This document shows, one piece after another, positions 2,189 to 47,226 of a stretch of 64,000 bases of DNA. The number at the start of each line of letters is the position of its first letter. The stretch's first letter is position 1. The DNA lies in contig JAZLFJ010000053.1 of the NCBI GenBank assembly GCA_045615665.1, positions 89,531 to 153,530 of the forward strand. Reading direction: 5' to 3'. Source of the DNA: Bacilli bacterium (GTDB lineage Bacteria; Bacillota_I; Bacilli_A; RFN20; CAG-826). The position numbers were made by a program, and so were the translations under genes. The notes under the pieces are model-generated. The model did no database searches. It saw nothing but the letters and a program-made list of their open reading frames with translations, and was not told the origin of the DNA.

Positions 2189-2208
2189 TTAGTATTTATT
2201 TAGTAGTT
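2189..2208 (+). repeat. TTAGTA-N5-TTAGTAGTT dyad, copy A
   Basis: ttagtatttatttagtagtt, 25 nt after the xseB stop and 10 nt before the dxs ATG. Confidence 0.6.
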
Positions 2209-2218
2209 TTATAGTTAA

Positions 2219-4081
2219 ATGAGTAAATCCAAAGTTAAACATATTGAACTAAGCAGAATTGAAAATCCGCTATTTTTAAAAGATCTTTCGTACAAGGAAC
2301 TCGACGTACTTGCGAGTGATATACGCGGTGAGATTTTAAGAGTGACTTCAACTTATGGTGGACATCTTTCCAGCAATCTTGGAGCAGTGGAGCTCACCAT
2401 CGCTTTGAATCGTTCCTTTGATTTTTCAAAGGACAAACTAATTTTTGATGTTGGTCACCAATGTTATACTCATAAAATTCTTACAGGTAGAAGCCTTGAA
2501 CATCTAAGAACTAAAGATGGACCTTCTGGCTTCCAAAAGAGAAATGAATCCATCTACGATTGCTACGAAGCTGGTCACTCTTCAACATCAATTTCCGCCG
2601 CTAATGGCCTTGCCATCGCTCGTGATTTAAATCATAAAAATTACAATATTGTTGCTTTTATTGGTGATGCCTCAATCGTCAGCGGCTTAGCTTTTGAAGG
2701 AATGAATAACCTTGCTCATTCAAATCACAAAGTGATTATTGTTTTAAATGATAACGGAATGTCGATCTCTAAACCAGTCGGTGCTTTGGCATCTAGTTTT
2801 GCTAAAATCTCAACTAGCGCTGGTTATAACCGCTTCAAGTCTTCTATGAAGAAAACTCTTCAGAAGGGCAAAGTAAGAAATGCTATATACAATTTCTTTG
2901 TCGGAATCAAAAATTGGTTTAAGCGTCATTTAATCGAACCAACTATTTTCACCGATTTAGGCTTTGCCTATATTGGCCCAATCGATGGTCATAATATCAA
3001 AGCAATCGAAAAAGCTATAAGACGCGCTAAGAATACGAACAAATCCGTCGTTATACATGCTTGTACCTTAAAAGGTAAAGGTTATAAATATGCTGAAAAT
3101 GATGAAACAGGTTATTGGCATGGTGTCTCAGCTTTTGATTTAGAAAGCGGTGCGCCTAAAAATAAACATGAAGGCGAAGTTTCCTGGTCTCACTTATATA
3201 GTGATATCTGCGAAGAAGAGTTAAGAAATCATGAGAAAGCTATTTTAATTTCTCCTGCGACAATTAAAGGAGCGGGATTAGATTCTCTTTCTGATGATTT
3301 AAAAGAACGAATTATCGATGTCGGCATAGCCGAAGAACATGCTGCAACCCTTGCTAGCGCTTTATCTTTAAGTGGCTATCATCCAATTATTTCAATTTAT
3401 TCCACCTTCCTTCAAAGAGCGTATGACGAGGTCTCACACGATTTAGCGCGTATGAATTGCAATGCAACTTTCCTTGTTGATCGTTCAGGTTTGGTGGGGG
3501 CGGATGGAGAAACTCACCAAGGCATCTATGATGAAGCTTATTTATCAAGTATTCCTAATGTCACAATTACGATTGCATCTAACGCGGATGAAGCAAAAGC
3601 TTTATTCGATGAATCGTTCAATAACCATGGTCCATTCTTTATTCGTTTACCGCGTACTTTATTAAAGAAGCCTGAAGCAATTAACAAAGTTAATATTCCA
3701 TATGGAACCTGGTTAAAACTAAGCGAAGATTCCTCTAAACAATTAGCGATCATCTCCTGTGGCCCAAGTGTTAGAGAACTACTTTCTTTACTAAAAGAAA
3801 ATGATTTAGATGCAACTTTAATTAATGCTCTATATCTTAATCCAATCGATGAAAAGATGCTTAGCGAGCTCCTTCAATATTCCAAAATTGTCATTTATGA
3901 CCCTTATAGCACCCGCGGAAGCCTCATAAATCTTACCTCAGCATATTTACTCGAAAATGGATTTAAGGGCGCTTTAAAGGCTTATTTCATCCCAAATGAA
4001 TTCGTTAAACAAGCATCCATAAATGAACAATTAGAAAAATATCATCTTTTGCCAAAGCAGATTATCGAAGATTTGAAATAA
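2219..4081 (+). CDS. dxs: 1-deoxy-D-xylulose-5-phosphate synthase
   Basis: 620 aa with the TPP motif GDASIVSGLAFEGMNNL..LNDNGMSI and transketolase-like domains. No Shine-Dalgarno upstream. Confidence 0.95.
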   Translation: MSKSKVKHIELSRIENPLFLKDLSYKELDVLASDIRGEILRVTSTYGGHLSSNLGAVELTIALNRSFDFSKDKLIFDVGHQCYTHKILTGRSLEHLRTKDGPSGFQKRNESIYDCYEAGHSSTSISAANGLAIARDLNHKNYNIVAFIGDASIVSGLAFEGMNNLAHSNHKVIIVLNDNGMSISKPVGALASSFAKISTSAGYNRFKSSMKKTLQKGKVRNAIYNFFVGIKNWFKRHLIEPTIFTDLGFAYIGPIDGHNIKAIEKAIRRAKNTNKSVVIHACTLKGKGYKYAENDETGYWHGVSAFDLESGAPKNKHEGEVSWSHLYSDICEEELRNHEKAILISPATIKGAGLDSLSDDLKERIIDVGIAEEHAATLASALSLSGYHPIISIYSTFLQRAYDEVSHDLARMNCNATFLVDRSGLVGADGETHQGIYDEAYLSSIPNVTITIASNADEAKALFDESFNNHGPFFIRLPRTLLKKPEAINKVNIPYGTWLKLSEDSSKQLAIISCGPSVRELLSLLKENDLDATLINALYLNPIDEKMLSELLQYSKIVIYDPYSTRGSLINLTSAYLLENGFKGALKAYFIPNEFVKQASINEQLEKYHLLPKQIIEDLK

Positions 4082-4099
4082 AGTTTGGTTAACATAATA

Positions 4100-4128
4100 T
4101 TGATTACAAATCAAGCGTTCTATAAAAT
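4100..4128 (+). promoter_or_regulatory. dinB-xerD promoter positioned for a leaderless mRNA
   Basis: TTGATT (4100-4105), 17-nt spacer, TAAAAT (4123-4128), then 6 nt to ATG 4135. No SD. Confidence 0.6.
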
Positions 4129-4134
4129 AGAATT

Positions 4135-5334
4135 ATGGTAAAAGTAATTCTTCATATCGATTTGAACGCTTTTTTTGTTCGTTGTGAAGAACTTGAAGAT
4201 CCTTCTTTGATTGGTAAACCTGTCATCATCGGTCATAGTGGTCGTGGTGGAGTTGTCTCGACTTGTTCATATAAGGCTCGTGAATTTGGTGTGCGTTCCG
4301 GTATGCCCACTTTTCAGGCTTTGAAACTTTGTCCAAACGCGATTATTATTCCTGGTCACTATAGCTTGTATTCTAAAAAGTCTCACGAATTCATTAACTT
4401 TGTTAAAAAACATTCTACGCTCATCGAGCAAGCTTCAATTGATGAATGCTATGTCGATATGACTAAGACTCTTTCTAATATCAAAAATCCGTTGGAATAC
4501 ATTAAGAATATGCAGGACACTCTTTTTAAAGAGACTGGTCTAATGTGTTCCATTGGAGTGGCACCCACTAAGTTTTTAGCGAAGATGGGTAGCGACTATA
4601 AAAAGCCGATGGGAATAACTATCATTCATCGTAAGGATATCGCAAGGATATTATATCCTTTACCTATAGAATCCTTCTTCGGAATCGGTAAGAAGACCGC
4701 TCCAAAATTACGCAAGATGGGAATAAATACCATCGGAGATTTAGCAAAGCTAATTAATGAAGATGATCCTGAAATCAAAAAGGAATTTGGTCGATTCTAT
4801 TATGGAATCAAAGATTGGATTAATGGTTATGGTAGCAATGAAGTTGAAACCGAACCATGGGATCCTAAATCGATTGGTAATTCCACAACCTTTAAATACG
4901 ATACGAATAATTTTGAAGAAATTAAAGAATATGTTTGTGAACTGTCTAAAAAAGTTTCAGAACGCGCTAAAGAGGCAAACAAAGTTGGTTACAGCGTTCA
5001 ACTCGTTTTAAAGGACGATGATTTCAAAGTCATCAACCGCTCTAAGAAATTGAGCAAACCAACAAATGATTTCATAGAAATCTTCGATATAGCCACTCAA
5101 CTTTTAGAAACAAATTTAGGCGATAAAATGATTCGCCTCGCAGGAGTGACTCTTCAAAATTTAATTGATCCTTCTGAAGTGGTTATTCAAATGTCTATCT
5201 TTGATAACTATGATGAAATCAAGGAAGAATGCGCCACTAAACTTCTCATTGCCGAATTAAACCGCAAAATGAAGAAACCGGTTTTTAAAACTGCAGCCGA
5301 AACGCTTAGGGATAAGAAATATGAAACTAGATGA
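4135..5334 (+). CDS. dinB: DNA polymerase IV (Y-family)
   Basis: N-terminal ILHIDLNAFF and SIDECYVD motifs. 399 aa. Confidence 0.9.
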   Translation: MVKVILHIDLNAFFVRCEELEDPSLIGKPVIIGHSGRGGVVSTCSYKAREFGVRSGMPTFQALKLCPNAIIIPGHYSLYSKKSHEFINFVKKHSTLIEQASIDECYVDMTKTLSNIKNPLEYIKNMQDTLFKETGLMCSIGVAPTKFLAKMGSDYKKPMGITIIHRKDIARILYPLPIESFFGIGKKTAPKLRKMGINTIGDLAKLINEDDPEIKKEFGRFYYGIKDWINGYGSNEVETEPWDPKSIGNSTTFKYDTNNFEEIKEYVCELSKKVSERAKEANKVGYSVQLVLKDDDFKVINRSKKLSKPTNDFIEIFDIATQLLETNLGDKMIRLAGVTLQNLIDPSEVVIQMSIFDNYDEIKEECATKLLIAELNRKMKKPVFKTAAETLRDKKYETR

Positions 5335-6199
5335 TGCTTGTGATTTATATTTTCAATATCTGAGAGTAGAAAAAGGCGTTTCGAATGAAACGATTCGTAA
5401 TTACGCTTATGATTTAAAGCAATTTTTTATCGCACTTCCTAAACAATCAACCGATGATATGCTTTCAACAGACATTACCGATTTTGTAACGATACAAATG
5501 AAAAATCAGTTATCGGTTCCGACTATTTTAAGAAGAATTTCTTCGACAATGAACTTTTATCTCTTTCTAGAAAGAGAACATATTATTGATTTCGTAGTTA
5601 AAGATTTTGATCGCCCCCGAAAGATGAAGAATCTTCCTAAAATCATCTCCGTGGAGCAAGTCGAAGATTTGCTAAATGCTCCCGATTTATCTAAAGATGA
5701 AGGTTTTAGAGATCGAACGATGTTAGAGCTAATGTATTGTAGTGGCCTGCGTGTCTCTGAATTACTTTCTCTGAAAGTTAAGCAAATCAATTTAGAAAAA
5801 CAAACTATTGATGTTATCGGTAAAGGTAGTAAGCAACGAAAAGTACCTGTCGGAGAATACGCCTTAGATTTCGTTAAACAATATATTGAAGAGCACCGAA
5901 TTCATAATCCAGGTAAAAAATCAAATTATCTATTTTTAAATAGATATGGAGAACCATTATCTAGACAATATTTCTTCCTTCAAATTAAAAAATACGCTAA
6001 AGAGGCTGGTATTGAAGAAGACATCTCGCCTCATACTTTAAGGCATTGCTTTGCCACCCACATGCTAGAAAATGGTGCGGAGCTACGAGCTTTACAAGAA
6101 ATGCTCGGTCACACCAACCTATCCACAACCCAAATTTACACCAACATTTCTACGAAAAGAATTTTAGATGCATATGATTTGTTTACAAAACGCAAATAA
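5321..6199 (+). CDS. xerD: Tyrosine recombinase XerD (XerC/D family)
   Basis: HTLRHCFATHMLENGAELRALQEMLGH..TQIYT catalytic region. Followed by deoB, as ripX-drm is in B. subtilis. XerC versus XerD is decided by synteny only. Confidence 0.7.
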   Translation: MKLDDACDLYFQYLRVEKGVSNETIRNYAYDLKQFFIALPKQSTDDMLSTDITDFVTIQMKNQLSVPTILRRISSTMNFYLFLEREHIIDFVVKDFDRPRKMKNLPKIISVEQVEDLLNAPDLSKDEGFRDRTMLELMYCSGLRVSELLSLKVKQINLEKQTIDVIGKGSKQRKVPVGEYALDFVKQYIEEHRIHNPGKKSNYLFLNRYGEPLSRQYFFLQIKKYAKEAGIEEDISPHTLRHCFATHMLENGAELRALQEMLGHTNLSTTQIYTNISTKRILDAYDLFTKRK

Positions 6200-6231
6200 G
6201 ATACAATTTAGATGTTCAAGGAGATTGTTAA

Positions 6232-7428: not shown

Positions 7429-8015
7429 CTAATCTTAGAAATATGATGAAGGGAACGTTTAATTACGTTCTCTTTTTCTAATTTTGAAATTAGTCTAGAT
7501 AAAGTTTCTCTTTTTAAACCTAATTCGCTTGCTAAAGTAGTGACACTTTTAAAGTCAACTTCGCCTTTATTTATAAATAAATAATATTCAAATCTTTCCA
7601 AAGCCGAATCGATAGAAAGAAGTTTAATTCTGCTATTGAGAGATTTGCCGAAATCAGATTGAATCTTTAAATATTCTTTTAGGAATTCTTTATTTGATGA
7701 TAGCAACGTTATCAAATCATCTTTTTTAATCGTCACCACGATTGATTTATCCACTGAAACAACATCACCTTTATAGTTAGGTTCACTAGAGAAAAGAAGA
7801 TTGTTACCAAATATTTGATTCTTGCCTAATTCGTTAAAGACAATTTCTTTGCCTGAGAACGAATAAGAAACGATTTTGATTTTTCCTTCACTTACAATGG
7901 TGATTTCTTCACATGTTTCACCTTCACGATGTAAAACATCGTTTTTATTGTACGAGCGGACACTCAAGAGTTTTCTTTCCTCTTTTTCTAATAATGATAA
8001 AATGTTCTTTTCCAT
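7425..8015 (-). CDS. Crp/Fnr-family transcriptional regulator
   Basis: cNMP-binding beta-roll plus C-terminal HTH (TLASELGLKRETLSRLISKL). ATG at 8015 is preferred over the track's TTG at 8033. Confidence 0.8.
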   Translation of the reverse strand: MEKNILSLLEKEERKLLSVRSYNKNDVLHREGETCEEITIVSEGKIKIVSYSFSGKEIVFNELGKNQIFGNNLLFSSEPNYKGDVVSVDKSIVVTIKKDDLITLLSSNKEFLKEYLKIQSDFGKSLNSRIKLLSIDSALERFEYYLFINKGEVDFKSVTTLASELGLKRETLSRLISKLEKENVIKRSLHHISKIS

Positions 8016-8022
8016 ATAATTC

Positions 8023-8038
8023 CGTGATTTCAATCACA
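8023..8038. promoter_or_regulatory. CRP/FNR-type palindrome
   Basis: cGTGATTTCAATCACA, with perfect 6-bp arms GTGATT/AATCAC, fits TGTGA-N6-TCACA. Sits in the divergent region between the Crp/Fnr gene and the ABC operon. Confidence 0.5.
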
Positions 8039-8084
8039 TTAATATTATTGATTATTTTGTAAAATAACTCCAGAGGTATTTACT

Positions 8085-9819: not shown

Positions 9820-9839
9820 TTAGTAGTAAATTAGTAGTT
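9820..9839 (+). repeat. TTAGTA-N5-TTAGTAGTT dyad, copy B
   Basis: ttagtagtaaattagtagtt, 64 nt after the ABC permease stop. Confidence 0.6.
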
Positions 9840-9950
9840 TCTATCAACAAAATATTTGTGGATAACCAGCCTTTTATTCATGTTTTAGCAAAATTCTATT
9901 TTCTTAAAATTTCCATATTCTTTCGATTAATTCTAATTTTCTTAGTATTT

Positions 9951-9978
9951 GGTTAACATAATAGTAGTTATGCGAAGT
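9951..9978 (-). other. dif-like XerC/XerD recombination site
   Basis: Minus strand reads ACTTCGCATAA-CTACTA-TTATGTTAACC. Compared by eye with B. subtilis ACTTCCTAGAA-TATATA-TTATGTAAACT and E. coli GGTGCGCATAA-TGTATA-TTATGTTAAAT. Lies at the gene-orientation switch. Confidence 0.65.
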
Positions 9979-10010
9979 TTACTAATTTTAACACTTCCCA
10001 CAAAAATTAC

Positions 10011-10378: not shown

Positions 10379-10380
10379 TT

Positions 10381-13141: not shown

Positions 13142-13206
13142 GTATATATTATATGTTAATTTTAGGAAAGTAATAACTTTTCTAATAAAAACTATAAATG
13201 GGACAT

Positions 13207-13236
13207 GAAAAAAGTGCCCGATAATTGAGCACTTTT
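13207..13236 (-). terminator. parC terminator
   Basis: AAAGTGC..GCACTTT stem followed by a T-run on the minus strand. Confidence 0.75.
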
Positions 13237-13243
13237 CATTAGT

Positions 13244-18665: not shown

Positions 18666-18685
18666 TTAGTAGATATTTAGTAGTT
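18666..18685 (+). repeat. TTAGTA-N5-TTAGTAGTT dyad, copy C
   Basis: ttagtagatatttagtagtt, 9 nt after the plsY stop. Confidence 0.6.
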
Positions 18686-18724
18686 TTTACAACTGTTGAT
18701 TTAAAAAACTAATGATTGTGGAAA

Positions 18725-18756
18725 GTCCAAATTGTTTCGATGAATTGGACTTTTTT
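18725..18756 (+). terminator. plsY terminator
   Basis: GTCCAAATT..AATTGGAC stem plus TTTTTT. Confidence 0.75.
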
Positions 18757-18758: not shown

Positions 18759-18790
18759 TTGACACTTTTTAATTGACACATTTTTGACAC
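18759..18790 (+). repeat. Three direct TTGACAC repeats
   Basis: TTGACAC at 18759, 18773 and 18784, inside a gene-free island bracketed by the plsY and yneF terminators. Confidence 0.8.
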
Positions 18791-26290: not shown

Positions 26291-27586
26291 TTAGTTTTTG
26301 TATGAATGATAGTCGCCTAAACGTTTGGCACGATTTGGGTGACGTAGTTTTTTAATTGCTTTCGCTTCAATCTGACGAATACGTTCACGAGTGACACCAA
26401 ATTCTTTTCCGACTTCTTCAAGGGTCCTTGGATGATTATCCAATAGTCCATAACGGAGTTCGAGAACGCGAGCTTCACGGTCGGTGAGTTCGCGGAGAAC
26501 ATCGTAAAGTTCATCTTTAAGGAGCGATTTGGTCGTATATTCGCTTGGAGAAACAACTTCCTTATCTTCGATAAAATCACCTAAATGTGAATCATCTTCT
26601 TCACCGATTGGAGTCTCGAGAGAAACTGGCTCTTGATTAATACATTGAATTTCCATAATTCTTTCAGGGGATAATGCACCACAGAGTTTTTCAGAAATTT
26701 CTTCGGTTGTTGGTTCACGACCTAGTTCTTGAACTAGCGCACGTTGAGCTTTGGTGATCTTATTAATTGTCTCGACCATGTGAACAGGAATACGGATGGT
26801 GCGAGCTTGGTCAGCGATGGCACGAGTGATAGCTTGACGAATCCACCAAGTGGCATAAGTTGAAAACTTAAATCCTTTAGTGTAATCGAATTTTTCCACC
26901 GCTTTGATAAGGCCCATATTGCCTTCTTGTATCAAATCTAAAAATGGCATGCCACGTCCAGCATATCGCTTTGCGATAGAAATAACTAAACGAAGGTTAG
27001 CATTGATAAGCTCTTGCTTAGCGTCTTCATCGCCAGTGGCAATACGTTTAGCGATTTCGATTTCTTCTTGAGCATTTAATAAGCGAACTTTACCGATTTC
27101 TTTAAGATATATCTTAACGGAGTCATTTACTTTGACATCGCCAACGATAAGATTAGAGATATCACTCAATTCTTTTTCATCAGGTACATCTTCATCTGAC
27201 ATATCTACAGCGATATCGTCGTCATCGCTAAAATCGATTTCATCCATTCCTTCTTCATCGCTATCGGAGATGACTTTGATTTTCTTTTTTACAAAGTAAT
27301 TGATTAAATCTTCGACATCTTCATCTGACATATCGAATTTCTGAATAGCTTCATTGATTTCGGCTTGTTCGATTTCACCACCATCATTTTGGGCTTTCTT
27401 TAAAAGACGCTTCTTTACCGATTCTAAAGTTTCGATTTCTTCGTCTTCATCGCTCTCGACTAATTCTTTAGTTTTTCGAGCTTTGGTTGGCTTCTTCTCT
27501 TTCGGAGCGGTTGCCTTAACCTTACTTTCTGCCTTTTTGGCCTTTTTTGGGGCCTCTATGGCTTCTTTCGCTTTCCTTGCTGCCAT
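26291..27586 (-). CDS. sigA: Primary sigma factor (RpoD/SigA)
   Basis: Region 2 ([19 protein letters not shown]) and region 4.2 ([20 protein letters not shown]), with an acidic/basic N-terminal extension. Confidence 0.95.
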
Positions 27587-27612
27587 TTACTTGTCCTTCT
27601 TTCTAAAGCACC

Positions 27613-29421
27613 TTATTTCGAGCTTTTTATTTTCATTCGGTCTAAGTAGGTCGCTACAATACGCGCTTGCTCCTGAGGCGTTTTCCCCTCTAACGCCTTT
27701 TGGAGATTTGTCTTGTCGTGTATATGAGACCTTTCCGATAAAATTACTTTGTAATAATCTTCTAATAACGTCGGAGAATAGGTTTCACTTTTCGCAAACG
27801 CTATCGAAGATACGGTCTTAATAAGCTGATCATTATTTGGTAATTCAGATGTTTGAATATCGTTGATGATATCGCTTGTTGATATAGATTCGTCTTTGTC
27901 CTTTCTTTCGATTAAGAAATTGGCAATTTGACGGTAATTTTCATCATTAAAATATTTTATATTTTTCTCATAGAATTCGATCGCTTGCTTATCGAGGAAC
28001 ATTTGTTTTAAAACTGAAAATTCCGCTAAAGCGAGTCGACGATATTGTTTTGAAACTTTTCCGACATCGATCGTTGATTCGATTTCAAGATTGACGTTGT
28101 AATCTGGCTCATTTCGATTTTGGCGTGTCGTATACTCTTTGAGTAAATTGCGAATTGCCTGAGCCGAAAAATTTGTTGCCTGCTCAAGTTTATAGATATA
28201 ATCATCCTTCTCTAATTGAGTTTTTAAAGAAGCTAAGGCTGGCAAAAAGTGAATAATCACTTTCTTTCTATTCTCGACCGTTTCTAAATGTGAAACATTG
28301 CGGTAATAGTTGATTGCGAAGTTAAATGGATCCACTAATGAGTTGACAAAAGTTTCTAACTTTTCTTCGCCATCTTGTTTTAATATTTCGTCTGGATCAC
28401 GAACTTCTTGAGGAACGCTAACTAGCCTATAAGGAAGCTTAGCTTCATCAAGTTGAGACATTATTTTCATCATCGCGGTTTGACCTGGATTATCGCCATC
28501 GAGGCACAATCTAATTTCCACGCCAAGAGCTCTAAGCATTTCGATATGTCTACTTGTCAACTTAGTTGACATTAAAGCAACACAGCTCGTTATGCCGATG
28601 CTATCTAAGGCAAAGACGTCCATAAAACCTTCCACCACATAAACATATCCATCATGTTTGGCGGTTTGTTTTGCTAAATGGTAATTGTACAAAACATTAC
28701 TTTTAGTAAAAGCCTTAGTTTCTGGAGAATTCACATATTTTGCAGAATCATCATCAACGATTCTACGCGCTGAAAAACCAACGACTTGTCCATTGTGATC
28801 TTTAATTGGGAAGATTAATCTACCGGCATTATTGTCATCGATGCCAGAAGTTTTCACTAAACCAATGCCAGTATTTTCGATAGTTTTCAATGAAAAACCT
28901 TTTTGTTGAAGGTATTTGATGACCATCTTACCATCTTTAAAAGCATAGCCTAATCCAAATTTGTCTCTTTGTTCGTTCGACAAATGTCGACCGTCTAAAT
29001 ATTTTCTTGCAATTTCACCTTCTTCAGTAGTTAATGCGTAAGCATAGAACTTTTGAATTTCGGTTAAGCAATTATAAATTGGGACTAAATTTTCATCGAC
29101 TTGTTTCACCACAATTTTGCTATGGAGACGTGGGTCATCGTAACCAATAATCTCGGCTACCTTCTTGATAGCGGCCATGAAGGAGCATTTTTCGTACTTT
29201 TGTACGAATGAAAAGACATCACCACCAGAATCGCAGACATAGCAACGGAACATTTGCTTTTCTTTATCGATTTGAAGTGATGGATCATGGTCATCATGAA
29301 ACGGGCACATAGCAACATACCTACGACCTTTTTTCTGAACTGAATTTAGATAATAGGAAATGACGTCGACTATGTCGGCCCTTTCTTTGATATCTCTAGC
29401 TAAATTTGAATCAATTGCCAT
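27613..29421 (-). CDS. dnaG: DNA primase
   Basis: Zinc finger CPFHDDHDPS and TOPRIM VVEGFMDV. Confidence 0.95.
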   Translation of the reverse strand: MAIDSNLARDIKERADIVDVISYYLNSVQKKGRRYVAMCPFHDDHDPSLQIDKEKQMFRCYVCDSGGDVFSFVQKYEKCSFMAAIKKVAEIIGYDDPRLHSKIVVKQVDENLVPIYNCLTEIQKFYAYALTTEEGEIARKYLDGRHLSNEQRDKFGLGYAFKDGKMVIKYLQQKGFSLKTIENTGIGLVKTSGIDDNNAGRLIFPIKDHNGQVVGFSARRIVDDDSAKYVNSPETKAFTKSNVLYNYHLAKQTAKHDGYVYVVEGFMDVFALDSIGITSCVALMSTKLTSRHIEMLRALGVEIRLCLDGDNPGQTAMMKIMSQLDEAKLPYRLVSVPQEVRDPDEILKQDGEEKLETFVNSLVDPFNFAINYYRNVSHLETVENRKKVIIHFLPALASLKTQLEKDDYIYKLEQATNFSAQAIRNLLKEYTTRQNRNEPDYNVNLEIESTIDVGKVSKQYRRLALAEFSVLKQMFLDKQAIEFYEKNIKYFNDENYRQIANFLIERKDKDESISTSDIINDIQTSELPNNDQLIKTVSSIAFAKSETYSPTLLEDYYKVILSERSHIHDKTNLQKALEGKTPQEQARIVATYLDRMKIKSSK

Positions 29422-29441
29422 ATATAACTTTGTTATAAAAA

Positions 29442-29458
29442 TACTAAATAACTACTAA
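29442..29458 (-). repeat. TTAGTAGTT-N2-TTAGTA dyad, copy D
   Basis: Minus strand reads ttagtagttatttagta. Same 11-bp register. Its first box contains the glyQS TAG stop. 20 nt before the dnaG ATG. Confidence 0.6.
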
Positions 29459-30828
29459 TTATTGTCTAACTTCTCTTGAAGGAAATCTTTAACTTTTTCA
29501 ATAGGAATTCGAACTTGTTCCATCGTGTCTCTATCACGGATTGTCACACAGTTATCCTTCTCAATGGTTTCGAAGTCTACTGTTATACAGTATGGTGTAC
29601 CGATAGCATCTTGACGGCGATATCTTTTACCAATTGAAGCTGTTTCATCGTAAGCAATAGAGAAATGCTTACATAATTCAGCATGAATTTCTCTAGCTTT
29701 ATCGTTGAGGTTTTTACTTAAAGGTAAAACCGCCGCTAAATATGGAGCGAGTTTTGGAGCGAAATGCATGACAATGCGACTTTCTTTTTCAAGTTGTTCA
29801 ACATCATATGCTTCGCATGCGACCATGAGGAAGATTCTTTCCACACCCATCGATGGTTCGATGCAATATGGAACATATTTGGTGTTTGTTTCTTGCTCTA
29901 AATATTCAAGCGATTCACCACTAGCTTCCATATGGCGTTTTAAGTCGTAATCTGTTCTATCGGCTACGCCGAGAATTTCGCCCCAACCAAATGGGAATTT
30001 GTATTCGACGTCACAGGTAGCCTTAGAATAGAAAGCAAGTTCTTCTGGTTCGTGATCACGATAACGGAGATTCTTTTCCGATATATTTAAAGATTCCAAG
30101 AACTTTAAAGAATATTCTTTCCAGTATTTAAACCATTCTAAATCGGTTCCTGGTTTACAGAAGAATTCCATTTCCATTTGTTCGAATTCTCGAACACGGA
30201 AAATAAAATTACCCGGAGTAATCTCGTTACGGAACGATTTACCAATCGCACAGATACCAAATGGGATTTTTCTACGAGATGTTCTCTGAACATTTTTGAA
30301 GTTAACAAACATGCCTTGAGCGGTCTCGGGTCTTAAATAGACGAGCGATTCGCTAGCCTCGGTTACACCAATATGGGTTCTAAACATCATATTAAATTGA
30401 CGAATGTCGGTAAAATTCGATTTGCCACAAACAGGACATTTAACTTTATTATCTTTGATAAATTGAATCATTTGATCTTGGTTCATACCGTGAACGTCGA
30501 CTTCTGGGAACTGTTCCTCAATTAAGTTATCGGCTCTATGACGAGCTTTGCATTCTTTGCAGTCGATTAAAGGATCGGAGAAAGTTGCAACGTGTCCAGT
30601 TGCTTTCCAGACATTTGGATTCATTAAGATTGCGGCATCGATTCCAACATTTGTTGGACTTTCTTGAACAAACTTCTTCCACCACAATTTCTTTATATTG
30701 TTTTTAAGTTCCACACCTAAAGGACCAAAGTCCCATGAATTAGAAAGCCCACCATAGATTTCAGAATCTTGGTAGACGAAACCGCTTGTAATCAAGTGAT
30801 TTACAATTTCATCAAATTTCTTTTCCAT
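29455..30828 (-). CDS. glyQS: Glycine--tRNA ligase (homodimeric type)
   Basis: 457-aa class II aaRS. Upstream GAGGT RBS. Confidence 0.95.
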   Translation of the reverse strand: MEKKFDEIVNHLITSGFVYQDSEIYGGLSNSWDFGPLGVELKNNIKKLWWKKFVQESPTNVGIDAAILMNPNVWKATGHVATFSDPLIDCKECKARHRADNLIEEQFPEVDVHGMNQDQMIQFIKDNKVKCPVCGKSNFTDIRQFNMMFRTHIGVTEASESLVYLRPETAQGMFVNFKNVQRTSRRKIPFGICAIGKSFRNEITPGNFIFRVREFEQMEMEFFCKPGTDLEWFKYWKEYSLKFLESLNISEKNLRYRDHEPEELAFYSKATCDVEYKFPFGWGEILGVADRTDYDLKRHMEASGESLEYLEQETNTKYVPYCIEPSMGVERIFLMVACEAYDVEQLEKESRIVMHFAPKLAPYLAAVLPLSKNLNDKAREIHAELCKHFSIAYDETASIGKRYRRQDAIGTPYCITVDFETIEKDNCVTIRDRDTMEQVRIPIEKVKDFLQEKLDNN

Positions 30829-33382: not shown

Positions 33383-34555
33383 TTATAAATCACATCTGTC
33401 CAAAAATCTGGATCTTTTTATTTTTCTTTCTCGGAAGTTAGAGAAATAGCGAATTAAATGTCCGAACGCCTCACTCATTAAGAAATATATTCCAAAATGG
33501 AATATGATGAAATTTGTCGAAGTCATATTGTTAACGATCATCATTCCTAAAGAGAGACATAAACTAACAAAAATATAAAAAACTTTCTTTAAAGAACCAG
33601 TTAACGCTACCTTCCCTGCTAGTGAATTTGCTTTCTTCAAAGAAGCGGTCAAAGTCGATGGAGAATCAAAGGCGGTCTTTTCAATGTCATCAACTTCTTT
33701 AGTCTCTTGCTTTTCTTTCTTTGAAAGTAGCTTGGCATCTAGCACTTTAACTAATAACAAAATCAGAAATACCAATAGATTGCGGTAATCATTCACGCAT
33801 AATAGTGTAGCGAAAACGATAATCATCACCAAATTTGAGATTAAAGTCTTAAAACTGATGAAGTAATTGCATTTGTAATCTACGTAGGAGCGATACGCCT
33901 CGATATTTTGATTACTTTTTTGGGAGAAGAAAATGTCAATATATTGTCTATCAAAGAAATACAATTCTTTGACAATGTACCAATTTTCTACTAATTCTGC
34001 TAAAGCAAACAAAAGCAGGAACCCCATCGTCAAGATGATGCTGGAGTCATCTTTTATCAAGTAAAATCCTGTCAATAAGGATGCGAATACAATGCTTAAG
34101 ATTCCATAATAGATTAAATCCATCCAGATTGGTAAGAGTTTGATTTTATTTGCTTTACATCCTTTAGCGTCCTTTGTATTAACGCATTCGAGAACTTGAC
34201 CGCTCCACCGTTTCATAAATTCATCATGTGAGACCCTTACTTTACCGATGTTAGGATCGATGTAGGTCACGCTGAATTTACTTACTCGTTTTAAATAAAC
34301 GAGATGATTTGGTTTGATCATCACAAGTGTCCCTAAAGGAATCTCCTTAAAATCGTCGATTGGCATCTCATAGGCCGAGAGCACGAAGCCATAATTCTTT
34401 GCGATGTACATCAAATCGTAAAATGTGTAATCCTTCTTCTTTGAAGGCTTTTTGAGATAGAGATATTTTTTATTATGTGTTTTGTTCGCTAAAAGCATCT
34501 TGAGAGAAGCAAAGCCACAATCTCTATCATTTCCTTGGTAACAAACGTATGTCAT
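33383..34555 (-). CDS. C39 (double-glycine) peptidase domain fused to a polytopic membrane domain, with no ABC ATPase
   Basis: QGNDRDCGFASL (Gln7, Cys13), KPNHLVYL (His84) and YIDPNIG (Asp100), then 5-6 hydrophobic helices. GGAGG RBS. Confidence 0.7.
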   Translation of the reverse strand: MTYVCYQGNDRDCGFASLKMLLANKTHNKKYLYLKKPSKKKDYTFYDLMYIAKNYGFVLSAYEMPIDDFKEIPLGTLVMIKPNHLVYLKRVSKFSVTYIDPNIGKVRVSHDEFMKRWSGQVLECVNTKDAKGCKANKIKLLPIWMDLIYYGILSIVFASLLTGFYLIKDDSSIILTMGFLLLFALAELVENWYIVKELYFFDRQYIDIFFSQKSNQNIEAYRSYVDYKCNYFISFKTLISNLVMIIVFATLLCVNDYRNLLVFLILLLVKVLDAKLLSKKEKQETKEVDDIEKTAFDSPSTLTASLKKANSLAGKVALTGSLKKVFYIFVSLCLSLGMMIVNNMTSTNFIIFHFGIYFLMSEAFGHLIRYFSNFRERKIKRSRFLDRCDL

Positions 34556-40072: not shown

Positions 40073-40095
40073 AGTTACTCCTTTCTAAGCACTAA

Positions 40096-40121
40096 AGCGA
40101 AGGGGCATTAGCCCCATCGCT
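40096..40121 (-). other. GC-rich hairpin between dnaK and dnaJ (no U-tract)
   Basis: AGCGAUGGGGC-uaau-GCCCCUUCGCU, an 11-bp stem with one mismatch. Confidence 0.5.
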
Positions 40122-40137
40122 AAAGAGTTATTAACAA

Positions 40138-42486
<2,349 letters not shown>

Positions 42487-42512
<26 letters not shown>

Positions 42513-43521
42513 TTGTTGGCTCCTTTCTTTCAGAGAATCTCTTTTCAAGTTCGTCGATTAAGTATTCCATTGAGGAGACGACCCGGTCGTAGTCCATTCG
42601 TTTAGGACCAACGATCGCAATCGAACCTTCTTGTTTTCCAGGAATCTTAACTTTAGCGGAGACGATCGATACATCGTCATCATTTTCACCAGCGATATGA
42701 ATCGAGATGTCGCCGTGGGCTTCATCTTCGACTTCTCTAAATACTTCTGGTGATTCGAATAACTCGAGGAGTCGACGAATCTTACTAGCATCGTTAGCGA
42801 ACTCAGGTTGATCGAATAAGTTGTCCGTTCCATAGGTGTTGAGCCTATCTTTGGCAAAGCCAACAAAGGCTTCTAACATCGTTTGGTAAATGACATCTTG
42901 ATCAATCACGAAGTCATTGAGAAGAGGTTTGATGGCTTCCATCTTTGGGACTAGTTCGGAAATCGCTGTTCCTTTTAGTCTTTCATTTAGAAGCTTGACG
43001 CATTTCTCGATATCTCCTAATTGAATTTCTTCATTTAAGGCGAACGTCTTATTTTCAACATAACCTTGGTCAGTAACGAAGACGCAGGTTGCGCTGGAAC
43101 TTGAAAGAGGAATAATTTGAACCGAAGCGAGTTTCTCTTGCTTGGCGTTTGGACCAAGAACAATCGAGGCTAGCGAAGTCATTTGAGATAAAATCTCACA
43201 AGACTCTTTTATCACGCTTTCAATCGATTGCGTCTTTTGGTCGAGAATCGTCTGCATTTGATATTTGAATTCTTCGGAGACGCTGCGTTCACGCAAGTTA
43301 TCGATATAATATCTATAACCTTTGCTAGAAGGAACGCGTCCGCTCGAGGTATGCGTCTTTTCAAGAAGACTATCACCTTCAAGAGCATTCATTTCCGCTC
43401 TAATAGTTGCACTTGAATAATTCAAACCATACTCATTAATCAAAGTTTGGCTTCCAACTGGCTGAGCAGTTTTAATGAAGTGTTCAACGATCAACTTTAA
43501 GATGCGATCTCGACGGTTCAT
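42487..43521 (-). CDS. hrcA: Heat-inducible repressor HrcA
   Basis: wHTH N-terminus, with CIRCE operators upstream. ATG at 43521 follows an AAGGAGAAA RBS. Confidence 0.9.
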
Positions 43522-43535
43522 AATTTTCTCCTTTT

Positions 43536-43562
43536 TTGGCACTCACACTTTTGGAGTGCTAA
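43536..43562 (-). promoter_or_regulatory. CIRCE operator 1
   Basis: TTGGCACTC-N9-GAGTGCTAA, one mismatch to TTAGCACTC-N9-GAGTGCTAA. Lies between the -10 and the hrcA RBS. Confidence 0.85.
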
Positions 43563-43567
43563 TCATA

Positions 43568-43595
43568 ATTATAAGAATCATTTTGGCACTGTCAA
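43568..43595 (-). promoter_or_regulatory. hrcA-grpE-dnaK-dnaJ promoter
   Basis: TTGACA (43595-43590), 16-nt spacer, TATAAT (43573-43568). Confidence 0.75.
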
Positions 43596-43609
43596 GTCTC
43601 AAGTGCTAA
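43583..43609 (-). promoter_or_regulatory. CIRCE operator 2 (degenerate)
   Basis: TTGGCACTG-N9-AAGTGCTAA, three mismatches. Overlaps the -35. Confidence 0.6.
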
Positions 43610-43649
43610 AAATCGTTAACAATTTTAAATGGCCTCTGGCCAAATTAAT

Positions 43650-43681
43650 AAAAAAGCCCACATTTATTTATGATGTGAGCT
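43650..43681 (-). terminator. Surface-protein gene terminator
   Basis: GCUCACAU..AUGUGGGC stem plus TTTTTT. Confidence 0.7.
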
Positions 43682-43700
43682 ATTTTTTTCGAATTGCTAC

Positions 43701-44297
43701 TTACTTTAAATACACTTTTGCAGATGAGAATCCGTAGTTGAAATCAATATAATCTGTCGCTAAGAATTCGGATGGCATCTCATAGACGACATCGACGGTT
43801 TTTTCAATCTTTGGTCCAAGCGAGATGCTGTACCAGAAACCATTGTCGAGATAGATACCTTTGGTAGATGGATTATATTTATCATTTCCACGATATAGCG
43901 GCATGTAATCCTCAGTGACACTTCTTTCGCTTGAAGCGATATTTCGAATCTTAATGGAAATAACTGAGAAATTTTGTGTCGTCTTTCCATCATCAACATA
44001 TTTTGAGACTTCCTTAGTGTTGTAACCAGAAACGACTGTAAATTCGAAATCATTAATTGTTACAGTGTCGTTCATTTTATATTCTTGAGCAGATGGGCTT
44101 GTTTGACTTGTATTGCTAGACGATTCTTGAGCAGATGGGCTTGTTTGACTTGTATTGCTAGACGATCCATTCGATGAACCACCTGAACCAATTACAACAA
44201 TGACGATAACTGTCGTGACAGTCGCAAGTCCCATTAACATCCAAAACCACCATCTTTTATAAAGTGGTTTCCTTCTTTTTGGTGTCGTATTTTCCAT
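43701..44297 (-). CDS. Membrane-anchored surface protein with S/T/Q-rich tandem-repeat linker and a DUF4352-like beta domain
   Basis: Basic N-terminus plus a TM helix, SSSNTSQTSPSAQE x2, then a C-terminal domain with the alternating beta pattern of DUF4352-type proteins. ATG at 44297 follows an AGGGAG RBS. Confidence 0.6.
   Translation of the reverse strand: MENTTPKRRKPLYKRWWFWMLMGLATVTTVIVIVVIGSGGSSNGSSSNTSQTSPSAQESSSNTSQTSPSAQEYKMNDTVTINDFEFTVVSGYNTKEVSKYVDDGKTTQNFSVISIKIRNIASSERSVTEDYMPLYRGNDKYNPSTKGIYLDNGFWYSISLGPKIEKTVDVVYEMPSEFLATDYIDFNYGFSSAKVYLK
44081..44166. repeat. Perfect 42-bp tandem duplication inside the surface-protein CDS
   Basis: attcttgagcagatgggcttgtttgacttgtattgctagacg occurs twice (44081-44122 and 44123-44164) and encodes SSSNTSQTSPSAQE x2 in frame. 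Confidence 0.95.
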
Positions 44298-44324
44298 AAA
44301 AAATCTCCCTTTAAAGATTCCTTT

Positions 44325-44351
44325 ATTGTAAAGAGAGAGAGAGAGATGCAA
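44325..44351 (-). promoter_or_regulatory. Candidate promoter whose spacer is the CT repeat
   Basis: TTGCAT (44351-44346), 15-nt spacer made of (CT)7T, TACAAT (44330-44325). An AGGGAG RBS and the ATG follow 27 nt downstream. Confidence 0.5.
44332..44346. repeat. (AG)7A / T(CT)7 dinucleotide microsatellite
   Basis: agagagagagagaga read directly. Lies between the -35-like and -10-like hexamers of the surface-protein gene. Confidence 0.95.
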
Positions 44352-44392
44352 GCACTCAACAAAGTAGAGTGCCAATATTACTGTGTAATAAA

Positions 44393-45490
44393 TTAGATTA
44401 TTTTCCTTAAAATGTAATCCATTATAAGTAAGCCGTTATCTGAAAGAAAAACCCTATCTTTGGTGACAATTATGTCTTTGGATTTGATAAATGACGATAT
44501 TTTGTCGTTATATTCGATAACAAAGTCTACTCCAAAGCGATTAATAAAATCTTTTCTTAAGAAACCGGATTCTAGTCTTAAATTTGTGAGTAAAAAATAT
44601 TCAAAATCTTTTTCTTTGGTAACAATTTCCTTACTAGCGATATAATCGCCACTTAAATATTTATCTAAACTTTTAGTGTTCTCGTAGCGAACTCCATTAA
44701 TATATCCTGAAGCCCCCAAACCTATTCCATAATATTCATCGTCATGCCAATAGGTAAGATTATGCTTTGCATATTTTTTGTTTCTAGCAAAATTTGAAAC
44801 TTCATATCTTTCATAACCATATTCTCTTAGAGTCTTAACAATATATTTATAATATTTCGCAGATTCTTCTTCGTCTTGTTCTTTATATTTCATGTTATGA
44901 AACACAGTTCCAGGAGAAACGATCAATGAATAAATTGAAATATGATCAACATCTAAAGCTAGGACGTTATTTAAATCATTTTCTAAATCTTTGATGCTTT
45001 GGGCATTAAATCCATAGATTAAATCAACATTAATTGAATCAAAACCATGCTTTTTAGCCTCGTTAACCACCTTAATAGCATCCTCATAGGTGTGACTTCG
45101 TCCTATTTCTTTTAGACGTCTATTTTGGGTTGATTCAACACCAATGGATAATCTCGAAACTCCATAGCGGCTCATAATATCTAATTTAGCGTTGCTAAGA
45201 TTTTCGACATTTGCTTCAACGCTGAATTCTCCACCATCACACAAATATGGTTTTACTTTCTGGAGCAGTTTTTCAAAATCTTCATCACTTAAAGATGTCG
45301 GAGTTCCACCGCCGATATAGATTGTTTTAACTCTGTTAATCTGATATGAATCAAGTTCTTTAAATAACTCATTTAGATATGGCTTAGCAAAGCGCTCATT
45401 ATAAAAAAGTTTTGTGAAATCACAATATTTGCATATGTGAGCACAAAACGGAATGTGTATGTATAAGGATTCGGGTTTAAGCTTGGCCAT
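44393..45490 (-). CDS. hemW: Radical SAM heme chaperone HemW (HemN-like)
   Basis: IHIPFCAHICKYCDF motif. Position between lepA and hrcA, as in Bacillus. ATG at 45490 is preferred. Confidence 0.85.
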   Translation of the reverse strand: MAKLKPESLYIHIPFCAHICKYCDFTKLFYNERFAKPYLNELFKELDSYQINRVKTIYIGGGTPTSLSDEDFEKLLQKVKPYLCDGGEFSVEANVENLSNAKLDIMSRYGVSRLSIGVESTQNRRLKEIGRSHTYEDAIKVVNEAKKHGFDSINVDLIYGFNAQSIKDLENDLNNVLALDVDHISIYSLIVSPGTVFHNMKYKEQDEEESAKYYKYIVKTLREYGYERYEVSNFARNKKYAKHNLTYWHDDEYYGIGLGASGYINGVRYENTKSLDKYLSGDYIASKEIVTKEKDFEYFLLTNLRLESGFLRKDFINRFGVDFVIEYNDKISSFIKSKDIIVTKDRVFLSDNGLLIMDYILRKII

Positions 45491-45728
45491 TCTTTTTAGC
45501 TTCTTCTTCCATCGCTTTTTGAATTTCTTCATCTTCGATAGGAACTAAAACGCGGTCAAGTTCTTGACGAACAGCTTCTTCTTCGGTAATTTCATCCTTT
45601 TTAATCTGTAAGGAAGTAACGTGCCTTTTTACAAAGATGATTACTAAAATTAGTAATCCAAAGAAACCTAGGAGTCCTAGGATAATCCATAATGGTAATA
45701 GAGCTGATGCTGCTAAAGTTCTAAACAT
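45477..45728 (-). CDS. Small single-pass membrane protein with acidic tail (hypothetical)
   Basis: 83 aa with one strong TM helix. AAGGAG RBS. 3-prime end overlaps hemW. Confidence 0.5.
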   Translation of the reverse strand: MFRTLAASALLPLWIILGLLGFFGLLILVIIFVKRHVTSLQIKKDEITEEEAVRQELDRVLVPIEDEEIQKAMEEEAKKNGQA

Positions 45729-45748
45729 AATTTTTCTCGCTCCTTATT

Positions 45749-47152
45749 TTACTCTTTGTCAATTGGAGTGTAAACAAACTTGTTTTTCACTTGTTCACGC
45801 TTATAGTAGCCAAGGCGCGCTAAATTATCCATAGATGTACGAGCGGTCTCATAGACCGTTCCTTCACATTTTTTAAATTGTTGGATCGTATAATATTTGC
45901 CTTTGGTGCAATGTCTAACATAGAAATGAGCTTGTTTCTTCTTAAGAAGAGGGTCTTCTTCAAGAAGGTTTTCGGCCATGCGTTTTAATTGTTTATCAGA
46001 TGGGCCTTCTTCAACAGGTTCTCTTTCGATAACTTGAATTGGCTTATGCTCACGTGGTTTTGGCTGTTCAACCTCTGGTTGCTCAACAACTTCCTTCTTC
46101 GTTTCAATGATTTCTTCGCTTGGAGAAACTCCAAACTCTTTTTCAAAATCTTCTTTAGATTCACCAAAGGTGTAGGAATTTTTAACAGCGGTCAATGTAA
46201 CTTGCGCAATCTTATCCATCACCATATCTAAGGAAGATGAGAATAAGTCGATAACTCTAAAGAGTTCATATGTTAAATCTCTTGAACGTTGGATTTCTCT
46301 TGAAACGCTAGCGAGTGAACCTTTTTCATCTAAAGCAATAGCTTCTAAGGGAATATAAGCAGCGGCAGATTCAACATCGCTAATTGAAACAATTAACTTT
46401 GTTAAAATTGCACTCATCTCAGCATTATATTTCTCAAATGGTTTGATGTAGGCAATCATATAAGAAGTAACCGCTACCTTTATTACGAAGGAATCTTTGC
46501 TATTATTAACATAGTTAATCAAGTTGTCCATTAGCCATGCAATTTCTTGAGTAGGTGCACCAGCGTATTCGCGGTCAACAAGTAGCCTTTGACCAGCCGT
46601 GTTAATTTCATCTTTTCTAAAGAAAGATTCGTCTAAATCGCTTCCAGAAATGATGGAATAATAAGTTTTAATGGTATTTAAATCGAATTTCTCTTTAGGA
46701 TTTTTTTCAAGGTGAGTTAAGGCTGCAAAATATCTATGGAGTGGTTCATATAACGATTCGGTGTTTTTATATTCATAAACATTGTTTAAAGCGACATCAT
46801 TAACATTGATCTTATTGATTTTCGCAATCATCTTTAATTCGTGAATAACAACATCTCGAAATACTGTGTATTGCGAAACTGAACCAGGTTGTAAGCCGCC
46901 AAAACTTACAATATATTGAGAAATGCTCTCTTCGAGAGTTTCAATTTTTTCAATAATTTTGGGCATGTAGGCAATCGTAAAAGGAACCTTAGTAATATCA
47001 AAAAGGTTCAATTGCTTACGATATTGTTTGCGGTACGATAAAATCGTAACCCAAATTGGTTCTATTAAATTCGTGCCTAATGCTTCGGCTACTTCAGTGC
47101 GAGTTGAATAATTCTCTTCACTGAATCTAATTGCAAGTGTGTTGTCTGCCAT
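45749..47152 (-). CDS. Fic-fold protein with degenerate active-site motif and C-terminal winged-helix
   Basis: Fic-like helix pattern, but YIKPFEKYNAEMSAIL stands where HPFxDGNGRxxR is expected. C-terminal wHTH-like TVYETARTSMDNLARLGY. GTGAGGAA RBS and its own promoter. Confidence 0.55.
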   Translation of the reverse strand: MADNTLAIRFSEENYSTRTEVAEALGTNLIEPIWVTILSYRKQYRKQLNLFDITKVPFTIAYMPKIIEKIETLEESISQYIVSFGGLQPGSVSQYTVFRDVVIHELKMIAKINKINVNDVALNNVYEYKNTESLYEPLHRYFAALTHLEKNPKEKFDLNTIKTYYSIISGSDLDESFFRKDEINTAGQRLLVDREYAGAPTQEIAWLMDNLINYVNNSKDSFVIKVAVTSYMIAYIKPFEKYNAEMSAILTKLIVSISDVESAAAYIPLEAIALDEKGSLASVSREIQRSRDLTYELFRVIDLFSSSLDMVMDKIAQVTLTAVKNSYTFGESKEDFEKEFGVSPSEEIIETKKEVVEQPEVEQPKPREHKPIQVIEREPVEEGPSDKQLKRMAENLLEEDPLLKKKQAHFYVRHCTKGKYYTIQQFKKCEGTVYETARTSMDNLARLGYYKREQVKNKFVYTPIDKE

Positions 47153-47172
47153 AATACTAATTCCTCACTAGT

Positions 47173-47201
47173 AGAATAGCATGTCACAAAGTATATATCA
47201 A
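47173..47201 (-). promoter_or_regulatory. Promoter of the Fic-like gene
   Basis: TTGATA (47201-47196), 17-nt spacer, TGcTATTCT extended -10 (47178-47173). Followed by a GTGAGGAA RBS. Confidence 0.55.
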
Positions 47202-47206
47202 TATAA

Positions 47207-47226
47207 AACTACTAAATTTTAACTAA
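47207..47226 (-). repeat. TTAGTT-N5-TTAGTAGTT dyad, copy E
   Basis: Minus strand reads ttagttaaaatttagtagtt. 12 nt after the lepA stop and just upstream of the -35 of the Fic-like gene. Confidence 0.55.

Follow-up and report, generated by a model that had tools for sequence, protein, structure and literature searches.

What is a short oriented repeat doing when it recurs, in strict phase, behind a handful of housekeeping genes? The question is raised by a 64,000-nt stretch of genomic DNA (hereafter the window) from a Bacilli bacterium (GenBank assembly GCA_045615665.1, contig JAZLFJ010000053.1, positions 89,531 to 153,530), in which an initial annotation had described five copies of an element with two TTAGTA-type hexamers 11 bp apart, always just downstream of a co-oriented stop codon. 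We compared these copies, here called arrays A to E, with those of related genomes, metagenomes, viral contigs and metatranscriptomes. The reading we favor, with a probability of roughly 45%, is that the TTAGTA(G)TT dyads are DNA-level, helically phased arrays of putative binding sites for a lineage-specific DNA-binding protein. Cooperative protein binding on one face of B-DNA is suggested by the strict phasing, the restriction of conservation to the boxes, the occurrence in both orientations, the placement at gene junctions and the small set of sites.

A small, fixed set of phased arrays

All five dyads were found, each in a strict 11-bp register. Array A (TTAGTATTTATTTAGTAGTT, 2189–2208, plus strand) occupies the xseB–dxs junction, 24 nt after the xseB TAA and 10 nt 5' of the dxs ATG. 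Array B (TTAGTAGTAAATTAGTAGTT, 9820–9839, plus) lies 63 nt past the TAG of an ABC permease gene, in the convergent spacer that contains dif, and array C (TTAGTAGATATTTAGTAGTT, 18666–18685, plus) follows the plsY TAG after 8 nt. On the minus strand, array D (TTAGTAGTTATTTAGTA, 29442–29458) begins at distance 0, the glyQS stop codon being the TAG of its first unit, and array E (TTAGTTAAAATTTAGTAGTT, 47207–47226) is 11 nt past the lepA TAA. The measured range of 0–63 nt behind a stop codon on the same strand agrees in all five cases with the 0–64 nt originally claimed. It was also correct that A, D and E adjoin the starts or promoters of dxs, dnaG and a Fic-like gene, with D and E standing at promoters.

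Searching for TTAGTA-N5-TTAGTA with at most one mismatch gave 6 matches in 64 kb compared to 0.51 expected from dinucleotide shuffles (0 of 100 shuffles reached 6), and the extended box TTAGTAGTT gave 7 matches compared to 0.59 expected. A chance origin of the dyads is excluded. The sixth dyad (33978–33994, minus strand, one mismatch) is intragenic and probably a chance match. As a single hexamer, TTAGTA was not over-represented in the window (35 copies). TACTA/TAGTA occurred at 0.30 of its expected frequency, making it the third most depleted of 96 AT-rich pentamers (0.72 for AACTA), and 14% of the window's TACTA copies fell within the five arrays; the dyads are thus conspicuous because their background is depleted in these words.

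We ran one pattern scan each of genome contigs, metagenome contigs (with a three-unit pattern) and viral contigs. About 45 of the 120 genome-scan matches listed belong to the window's clade and, judged by their flanking proteins, fall at few recurrent junctions. The nearest named relatives are metagenome-assembled genomes (MAGs) labeled uncultured Erysipelotrichaceae RUG021, Bacilli bacterium, Mollicutes UMGS and Candidatus Fiminaster. Site A recurs at the xseB–dxs junction of at least six other genomes (L037, L100, L099, L125, L153 and L016); in L236 dinB replaces dxs, giving an xseB–dinB array that is absent in the window, and in L061 an array precedes dinB behind a gene without identification. 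The dif spacer (site B) carries an array in the same orientation relative to dif in at least 12 pattern-found loci, the plsY 3' end (site C) in at least six pattern-found loci, the glyQS–dnaG junction (site D) in at least four (L049, L096, L179 and L228) and the lepA 3' end (site E) in at least two (L043 and L116). Various other loci have arrays where the window has none, namely at parC–yqeG, relA–hisS, rpmA–obg, nrdE–nrdF, pfk–nrdE, recN–spoIVB, aspS–tkt and tsaC and upstream of ftsA. The recurrent junctions reappeared in the independent three-unit metagenome scan.

Arrays in relatives consist of two to five units with the consensus TTAGTA-R-W-W-A-W. Among the matches listed for clade loci, perfect hexamers were spaced by 11 bp in 102 pairs (about 30 of them independent of the search pattern), by 12 bp in 2 and by 10 bp in none. 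At orthologous sites the hexamers and the A at unit position 10 are kept; the spacers, flanks and number of units vary, even in comparison with the closest relative, L037. The two-box extended element of the initial annotation is therefore real as a dyad but too narrow as a definition, since relatives often carry three to five units and the GTT after the box is frequent rather than universal.

Pattern searches favor sites that match the pattern, and we also drew a motif-independent sample of eight relatives retrieved by PlsY homology only (53–84% identity, 160 kb). An array stood straight after the plsY stop codon in 8 of 8 and left of dif in 8 of 8. The sample contained 17 dyad sites in 160 kb, 16 of which were these two orthologous sites and one of which lay elsewhere. 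Because the sample was blind to the motif, this retention is unbiased evidence of site-specific purifying selection; the comparison of orthologous spacers proposed in the initial annotation thus came out in favor of its element for arrays B and C. Not every array site is universal. At parC–yqeG, 2 of about 9 genomes have an array (L034 and L051), whereas a hairpin terminator takes its place in the window, L005 and L035. The window spacer (13142–13243, minus strand) also has a leaderless-type promoter (TATAAT, 6 nt, ATG). Across a clade of order rank, made up of uncultured Bacilli from the gut and rumen, the arrays mark a few evolutionarily fixed junctions, with the box conserved at a handful of places (dnaG–rpoD, dxs/dinB, plsY, lepA, nrdEF, hisS, obg and dif). 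A dispersed repeat or the end of a mobile element was rejected, because different sites have unrelated flanks and the sites recur at orthologous positions across genomes.

A self-recognition tag distributed over the whole genome, such as a DNA uptake sequence (DUS), would share several of these properties. The arrays are kept across species and favor gene 3' ends, as DUS do, comEA and comEC are encoded in the window, and both DUS and uptake signal sequences (USS) are short clade-specific words often located behind genes, USS having helically phased flanks. However, the arrays are orders of magnitude rarer than either, sit at fixed orthologous junctions and are nearly absent from coding DNA. 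Their density is low and site-specific, with two arrays per 20 kb at identical junctions in all eight PlsY-retrieved relatives, and the approximately four intragenic clade dyads among the matches listed (L031, L047, L092 and L112) are at roughly chance level. The TTTGCAKG box of a related motif family was not enriched in the window (5 matches compared to 5.5 expected), and viral contigs contained single copies in only about the number expected by chance. We consider such a tag extremely improbable. Carriage by phages was rejected on the same viral scan (97 single IMG/VR matches, about chance level).

Transcripts, promoters and a putative binding protein

The position of the window copies behind stop codons had suggested a 3'-end, termination or processing signal. 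In a broader form, an RNA-binding factor or nuclease would recognize UUAGUA repeats in the transcript, with termination, processing or stabilization of the RNA or control of translation of the next cistron as the outcome. In favor of this, the five copies of the window and the majority of those in relatives lie in the sense direction immediately behind a stop codon, several precede starts without a Shine–Dalgarno sequence (dxs, dinB, obg and dnaG), and hexameric Rho also reads an 11–12-nt periodicity. Metatranscriptomic data, in the form of Logan contigs rather than raw reads, came from a strain about 97% identical to the window. RNA contigs were unbroken over array A in four metatranscriptomes (for example, window 1–3677) and crossed array D in three runs (X1, X2 and X5; for example, 26360–30178). 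Two features of that strain were noted in passing: its sequence downstream of lepA is unrelated to the window past the last ~80 nt (from ~47317), and its dxs has a 9-nt insertion, CAAAGTTAA, near window position 2229, as in RUG021.

Structure and placement gave a similar picture. No hairpin follows A, D or E, the arrays are unstructured (z-scores of −0.3 to +0.3) and Rfam returned no matches in the window. Array C lies upstream of a separate intrinsic terminator of plsY, a predicted hairpin with a U-tract (18722–18756, plus strand) that is conserved in relatives with compensating stem changes, and in other genomes arrays lie downstream of hairpin terminators at rpmA–obg and before ftsA. Well-formed antisense arrays occur at nrdE–nrdF, recN–spoIVB and aspS–tkt, the first of them conserved between L029 and L174, and further arrays stand in divergent spacers. 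The rule that the element always lies downstream of a co-oriented stop codon therefore holds for the five window copies and fails in relatives, where arrays are also antisense, in divergent spacers and beyond terminators. Array B is moreover tied to dif rather than to its upstream gene (see below). Taken together, the terminator after C, the arrays after terminators, the conserved antisense arrays, the arrays in divergent spacers and the RNA read-through argue that the element acts at the level of DNA. An RNA-level signal is highly improbable, and the 3'-end reading was not supported.

At most junctions the array overlaps or adjoins the promoter or start of the next gene: dnaG–rpoD and the Fic-like gene in the window, and obg, hisS, dxs/dinB, nrdE and ftsA in relatives. 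A −10-like TATAAC (29432–29437, minus strand) begins 4 nt past array D and ends 10 nt before the dnaG ATG, forming a near-leaderless dnaG–rpoD promoter. D-type arrays end about 4 nt before the −10 hexamer in four of five genomes (2–4 nt in L049; not in L228), which places the boxes at about −20 and −30 of the dnaG–rpoD promoter. This −10 reads TATAAT in L096 and L179, and in these two genomes and the window it is 7–10 nt from the dnaG ATG; the leader of L049 is longer and includes a Shine–Dalgarno sequence. At site E, the Fic-like gene has a sigma-A-type promoter (TTGATA-17-TATTCT, 47173–47201, minus strand) whose −35 begins 5 nt past the array. E-type arrays end 5–6 nt before the −35 in the window and in L043, where the promoter is TTTACA-17-TAAAAT. 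Further examples are Hepatoplasma (L054), with a −10 three nucleotides after the array, and Mycoplasma marinum (L108), with the array upstream of a leaderless promoter, 18 nt before the −10.

Proximity of this kind raises the question of whether the arrays are themselves promoter or UP-like DNA that needs no dedicated factor, the phased TTAGTA words serving as −35- and −10-like hexamers or as curved DNA. By sequence logic, three in-register units do yield a −35-like TTAGTA and a −10-like TAGTAn (TAGTAT) exactly 17 bp apart, and arrays adjoin genuine promoters at D and E, in Hepatoplasma and in M. marinum. However, no −10 was conserved at a fixed offset over 75 arrays among the matches listed, curvature requires neither the conserved G at box position 4 nor an 11-bp register, B and C have no downstream transcript and antisense arrays occur inside operons. 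We regard this explanation as very unlikely.

Under the reading we favor, a protein would recognize tandem direct repeats on one helix face, at a spacing of 11 bp, or one turn. Once bound, it would most likely occlude or tune transcription initiation or insulate the junction, and at B and C it would probably act together with DnaA. Candidate readers are a head-to-tail OmpR/PhoP-like winged-helix regulator or a Rok-like nucleoid-associated protein. We infer all three elements of this proposal, namely protein binding, the family of the protein and the effect on transcription.

The operator for an OmpR/PhoB-type regulator put forward in the initial annotation gave the best fit in kind, given the 11-bp register, the box-only conservation and the overlap with the dnaG and Fic-like promoters; it fell short in that no such regulator was seen among the window's genes and in that three of the sites (A, B and C) do not have the character of classical promoter sites. 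PhoP, PhoB and WalR boxes resemble the arrays in being tandem direct hexamers, 11 bp from center to center, in two to five units. PhoP-activated promoters have boxes at about −20 and −30, as at the dnaG promoter. The Bacillus subtilis PhoP box, TT(A/T/C)ACA, differs from TTAGTA at two positions. The arrays differ from the sites of these regulators in that many lie away from promoters (A between cistrons, B and C in convergent spacers, further copies antisense within operons) and in being coupled to DnaA boxes at two sites and to dif at one.

For a Rok-like protein, the likeness is in the words themselves. The Rok winged helix prefers AACTA and TACTA (PMC6212790), and AACTACTAA, the reverse complement of TTAGTAGTT, contains both. 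At some of its sites Rok is also found together with DnaA, and it forms clusters close to ori and ter (PMC11841835). Genomes with Rok are depleted of AACTA and TACTA outside binding regions, and TACTA is scarce in the window. As a separate observation, Spo0A_C-like genes, stand-alone or C-terminal, and a SpoIVB homolog adjoin arrays in three loci (L018 2481–2855, L040 7729–7998 and L173). A link between Spo0A_C-like proteins and the arrays was set aside as anecdotal, with no homolog in the window or at other loci, although parts of the clade do retain sporulation-type regulators.

Several results weigh against a dedicated binding protein acting at promoters. By eye, none of the window's 62 open reading frames (ORFs) encodes an OmpR-type regulator, a Rok-like protein or another candidate binder. 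A-type arrays end 1–13 nt from the dxs or dinB start, leaving no room for a promoter; across all arrays the lack of a −10 at a fixed offset, noted above, and downstream positions beyond +3 that are merely AT-rich show no fixed promoter geometry. No RNA cover was seen over spacers B and C, and neither array has a downstream gene; this lack of cover also argues against DNA contamination and against abundant RNA starting there. In tandem spacers, after removal of orthologous duplicates, sense and antisense site groups stood at about 13:6 among the matches listed, so that sense orientation is still favored, a bias that a pure orientation-free operator would not predict. As to Rok specifically, the TACTA depletion of the window is part of a general TpA depletion that affects other TpA words equally, and is therefore not diagnostic. 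A requirement of Rok for direct repeats at 11 bp, or for sites conserved between orthologous loci, has not been reported, and Rok is known only from some Bacillus species.

Neither the box nor the dyad was found described in a full-text literature search. Phased operator or nucleoid-protein arrays are of a known kind, and the composite of array, DnaA box and dif described below is the unusual part. Because the clade (rumen and gut MAGs labeled 'Bacilli bacterium', 'Erysipelotrichaceae RUG' and 'Mollicutes UMGS') is uncultured, the box may serve as a handle for finding a major DNA-binding protein.

Composite spacers at dif and plsY

In spacer B the array is part of a larger arrangement. A consensus DnaA box, TGTGGATAA (9857–9865, plus strand), follows array B after 18 nt, and a conserved element, TTTCGATTAATTC (9921–9933, plus), lies immediately left of dif, the XerCD site (GGTTAACATAA-TAGTAG-TTATGCGAAGT, 9951–9978, plus), which marks the point where gene orientation converges. 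A second DnaA-box-like word right of dif, TTCCCACA on the plus strand and TGTGGGAA on the minus strand (9995–10002, minus), faces back to dif, so that the left and right boxes both point at it; TTTCCACA stands at the equivalent position in L338, L339 and L005. Alignment of the B-type spacers gave a common order of array, 2–35 nt, a TGTGGA(T/A)AA box, about 50 variable nucleotides, a CGAT..A.TC element, dif and the rsfS terminator. The box is on the array strand in all B-type spacers, the ..CGAT..A.TC.. block is present in nine aligned ones, and close relatives have a second, inverted DnaA-type box between dif and the rsfS terminator.

A dif search recovered the form TTAACATAA-N6-8-TTATGCGAA, conserved in 19 related loci, with array B in constant orientation at 95–130 nt from dif (112 bp in the window). 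The gene upstream of array B is variable among relatives and in some divergent, from which we conclude that this array is anchored to dif and not to a stop codon. Between the ABC permease gene and the array, six loci (L338 1355–1864, L339, L341, L342, L343 and L345) encode a multi-pass membrane protein (156–178 amino acids, no Pfam match), and the window lacks the gene.

Among the matches listed, a DnaA-type box was found downstream of 18 B or C arrays on the array strand, compared to 0.007 per 80 bp in the background. In the PlsY-retrieved relatives, array B was followed by a TGTGGA(T/A)AA-type box in 8 of 8. Elsewhere such boxes are near chance frequency. DnaA boxes on either side of dif have, as far as we know, no published precedent, and a conserved combination of array, DnaA box and dif is unusual. 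Two other explanations of the word after the arrays were rejected. TGTGGAWAA had 29 copies in 295 kb, mostly at B and C sites, and 86% of copies pointed toward dif compared to a gene-strand baseline of 87%; with near-chance frequency elsewhere and a strand skew equal to that baseline, it does not resemble an FtsK-orienting polar sequence (KOPS) or SpoIIIE recognition sequence (SRS). A small ORF starting from ATGTGGAAAAC was dismissed because variation falls on codon positions 1 and 2 and the peptides are not conserved; the word is the DnaA-type box.

Spacer C has a similar composition, with the plsY stop codon, the array, one to three DnaA boxes, the plsY hairpin terminator and a TTTTTAATTGAC(A/G)TTTT box in that order. 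In the window the DnaA boxes form a degenerate pair, TGTTGATTT ... TTGTGGAAAG (18694–18725, plus strand). In relatives this place is taken by TGTGAATAA, TTATCCACA and a third box, TCCACA; L343 and L345 have the DnaA box in perfect form. The TTTTTAATTGAC(A/G)TTTT box, directly 3' of the terminator (window 18759–18790), was observed in nine of nine aligned C-type spacers and in most pattern-found ones; it occurs three times in the window as TTGACAC, without a matching −10 hexamer. The B and C composites look paralogous. They have in common the word TTTCGAT(T/G)AAT, found about 20 nt left of dif (9921–9933) and in the loop of the plsY terminator (18734–18745), and likewise in L338–L345; this word resembles the high-affinity H-NS motif tCGATAAATT.

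Since the arrays stand next to DnaA boxes, we also compared them with origin elements. TAGTAG corresponds to two consensus DnaA-trios (3'-GAT-5'), and the arrays recall the 9-mers of Escherichia coli oriC, which lie in direct orientation 2 bp apart (an 11-bp period) beside a strong DnaA box. The basal unwinding system consists of at least three contiguous NAN trios at most 16 bp from a DnaA box at oriC (PMC8287927). The arrays have two trios per unit, their 11-bp period breaks the 3-nt register, the box is 2–35 bp away and the site is beside dif and not oriC, and this reading was rejected. Reading TTAGTAGTT as a low-affinity DnaA box was likewise rejected on register, spacing and identity (three of nine positions match).

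Given the proximity to dif, the chromosome terminus was considered as well, and a polar chromosome element had been among the original proposals. The arrays could be sites of a domain organizer of the MatP/matS kind or a polar fork barrier like RTP–Ter or Tus–Ter. As in those barriers, there are few asymmetric intergenic sites around dif, forming two opposed groups in the window (A(+), B(+), dif, C(+), D(−), E(−)), and one of them adjoins dif at the near-constant distance and orientation given above. In L034 and L051, dif is faced from two sides, by the array at parC–yqeG and by array B. The Ter consensus of B. subtilis contains words like TTRGTA or TTAGT. In the same species nine asymmetric ter sites, arranged in two opposed groups, span about 10% of the chromosome (PMC13220808). 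Array sites are densest in the synteny block near dif. About 58% of clade arrays among the matches listed are at junctions of genes that lie inside this dif-centered 64-kb window, an estimate biased toward orthologs of the window's own sites. The same applies to 5 of the 13 triple-array metagenome matches listed, and in an 879-kb contig its two matches among those listed are 21 kb apart.

Other features fit a terminus element poorly. Ter sites are single sequences of 23–32 bp, in contrast to 11-bp tandem repeats, and the only workable polarity would put dif outside the innermost pair (C to D). Four arrays within 5 kb form a divergent pattern (<- <- -> ->) in L029 and L174, antisense copies occur in other genomes, and the local gene predicts orientation no less well than dif does. 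Overlap with promoters, seen in many arrays, is not something that a fork trap calls for, and no terminator-protein gene was identified. We therefore judge a terminus element unlikely. That the arrays and DnaA boxes flanking dif and following plsY form a new terminus system of small-genome Bacilli, acting as a domain organizer or as a polar barrier to forks or transcription, possibly with DnaA, seems to us decidedly unlikely; if true, it would be a third independent solution beside Tus–Ter/MatP–matS and RTP–Ter. Most Firmicutes lack MatP, Tus and RTP, and the arrays would close this gap if they proved to be specific to the terminus.

Neighboring genes and other repeat families

Apart from the arrays, the window contains yqeG–rsfS, lepA–hrcA–dnaK and era–recO–glyQS–dnaG–rpoD blocks typical of a low-GC Firmicute. 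At the parC–yqeG junction of one relative (L345 4733–5283), a RelB/ParE–YafQ toxin–antitoxin pair is inserted between the two genes.

The pattern scans also returned repeats of other kinds. A separate, large family, ATTAGTA(G/T)GTG(A), consists of near-perfect 11-bp tandem repeats in three to seven copies on gut and rumen contigs with a GC content of 45–55% (L126, L131, L133, L134, L148, L156, L160, L161, L164, L165, L180, L187, L188, L190, L194, L198, L199 and L204, among others). Its hosts are possibly Bacteroidales, judging from GC content and source alone. No common neighbor family was found for these repeats, which lie beside unrelated housekeeping genes (MurG, amylase and ABC-2).

In a further group, a word of the form ...ACTAATTT(A)GTA... 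precedes a TTAGTA dyad by 5–15 nt (L015, L023, L044, L053, L058, L060, L072, L075, L080, L082 and L089). The hosts are Nitrospirota, Latescibacterota, Gemmatimonadota and other unrelated MAGs, and the word suggests a different mobile or regulatory element. Finally, four Prevotella loci (L057, L079, L101 and L106) share a conserved hairpin element, AAGTTAGTAAAAAATTAGTAGTTAGTTAATAAAGTCTGGTAT...ACCAG(C/T)TTTTTT, located after a tRNA-like GC-rich stretch.

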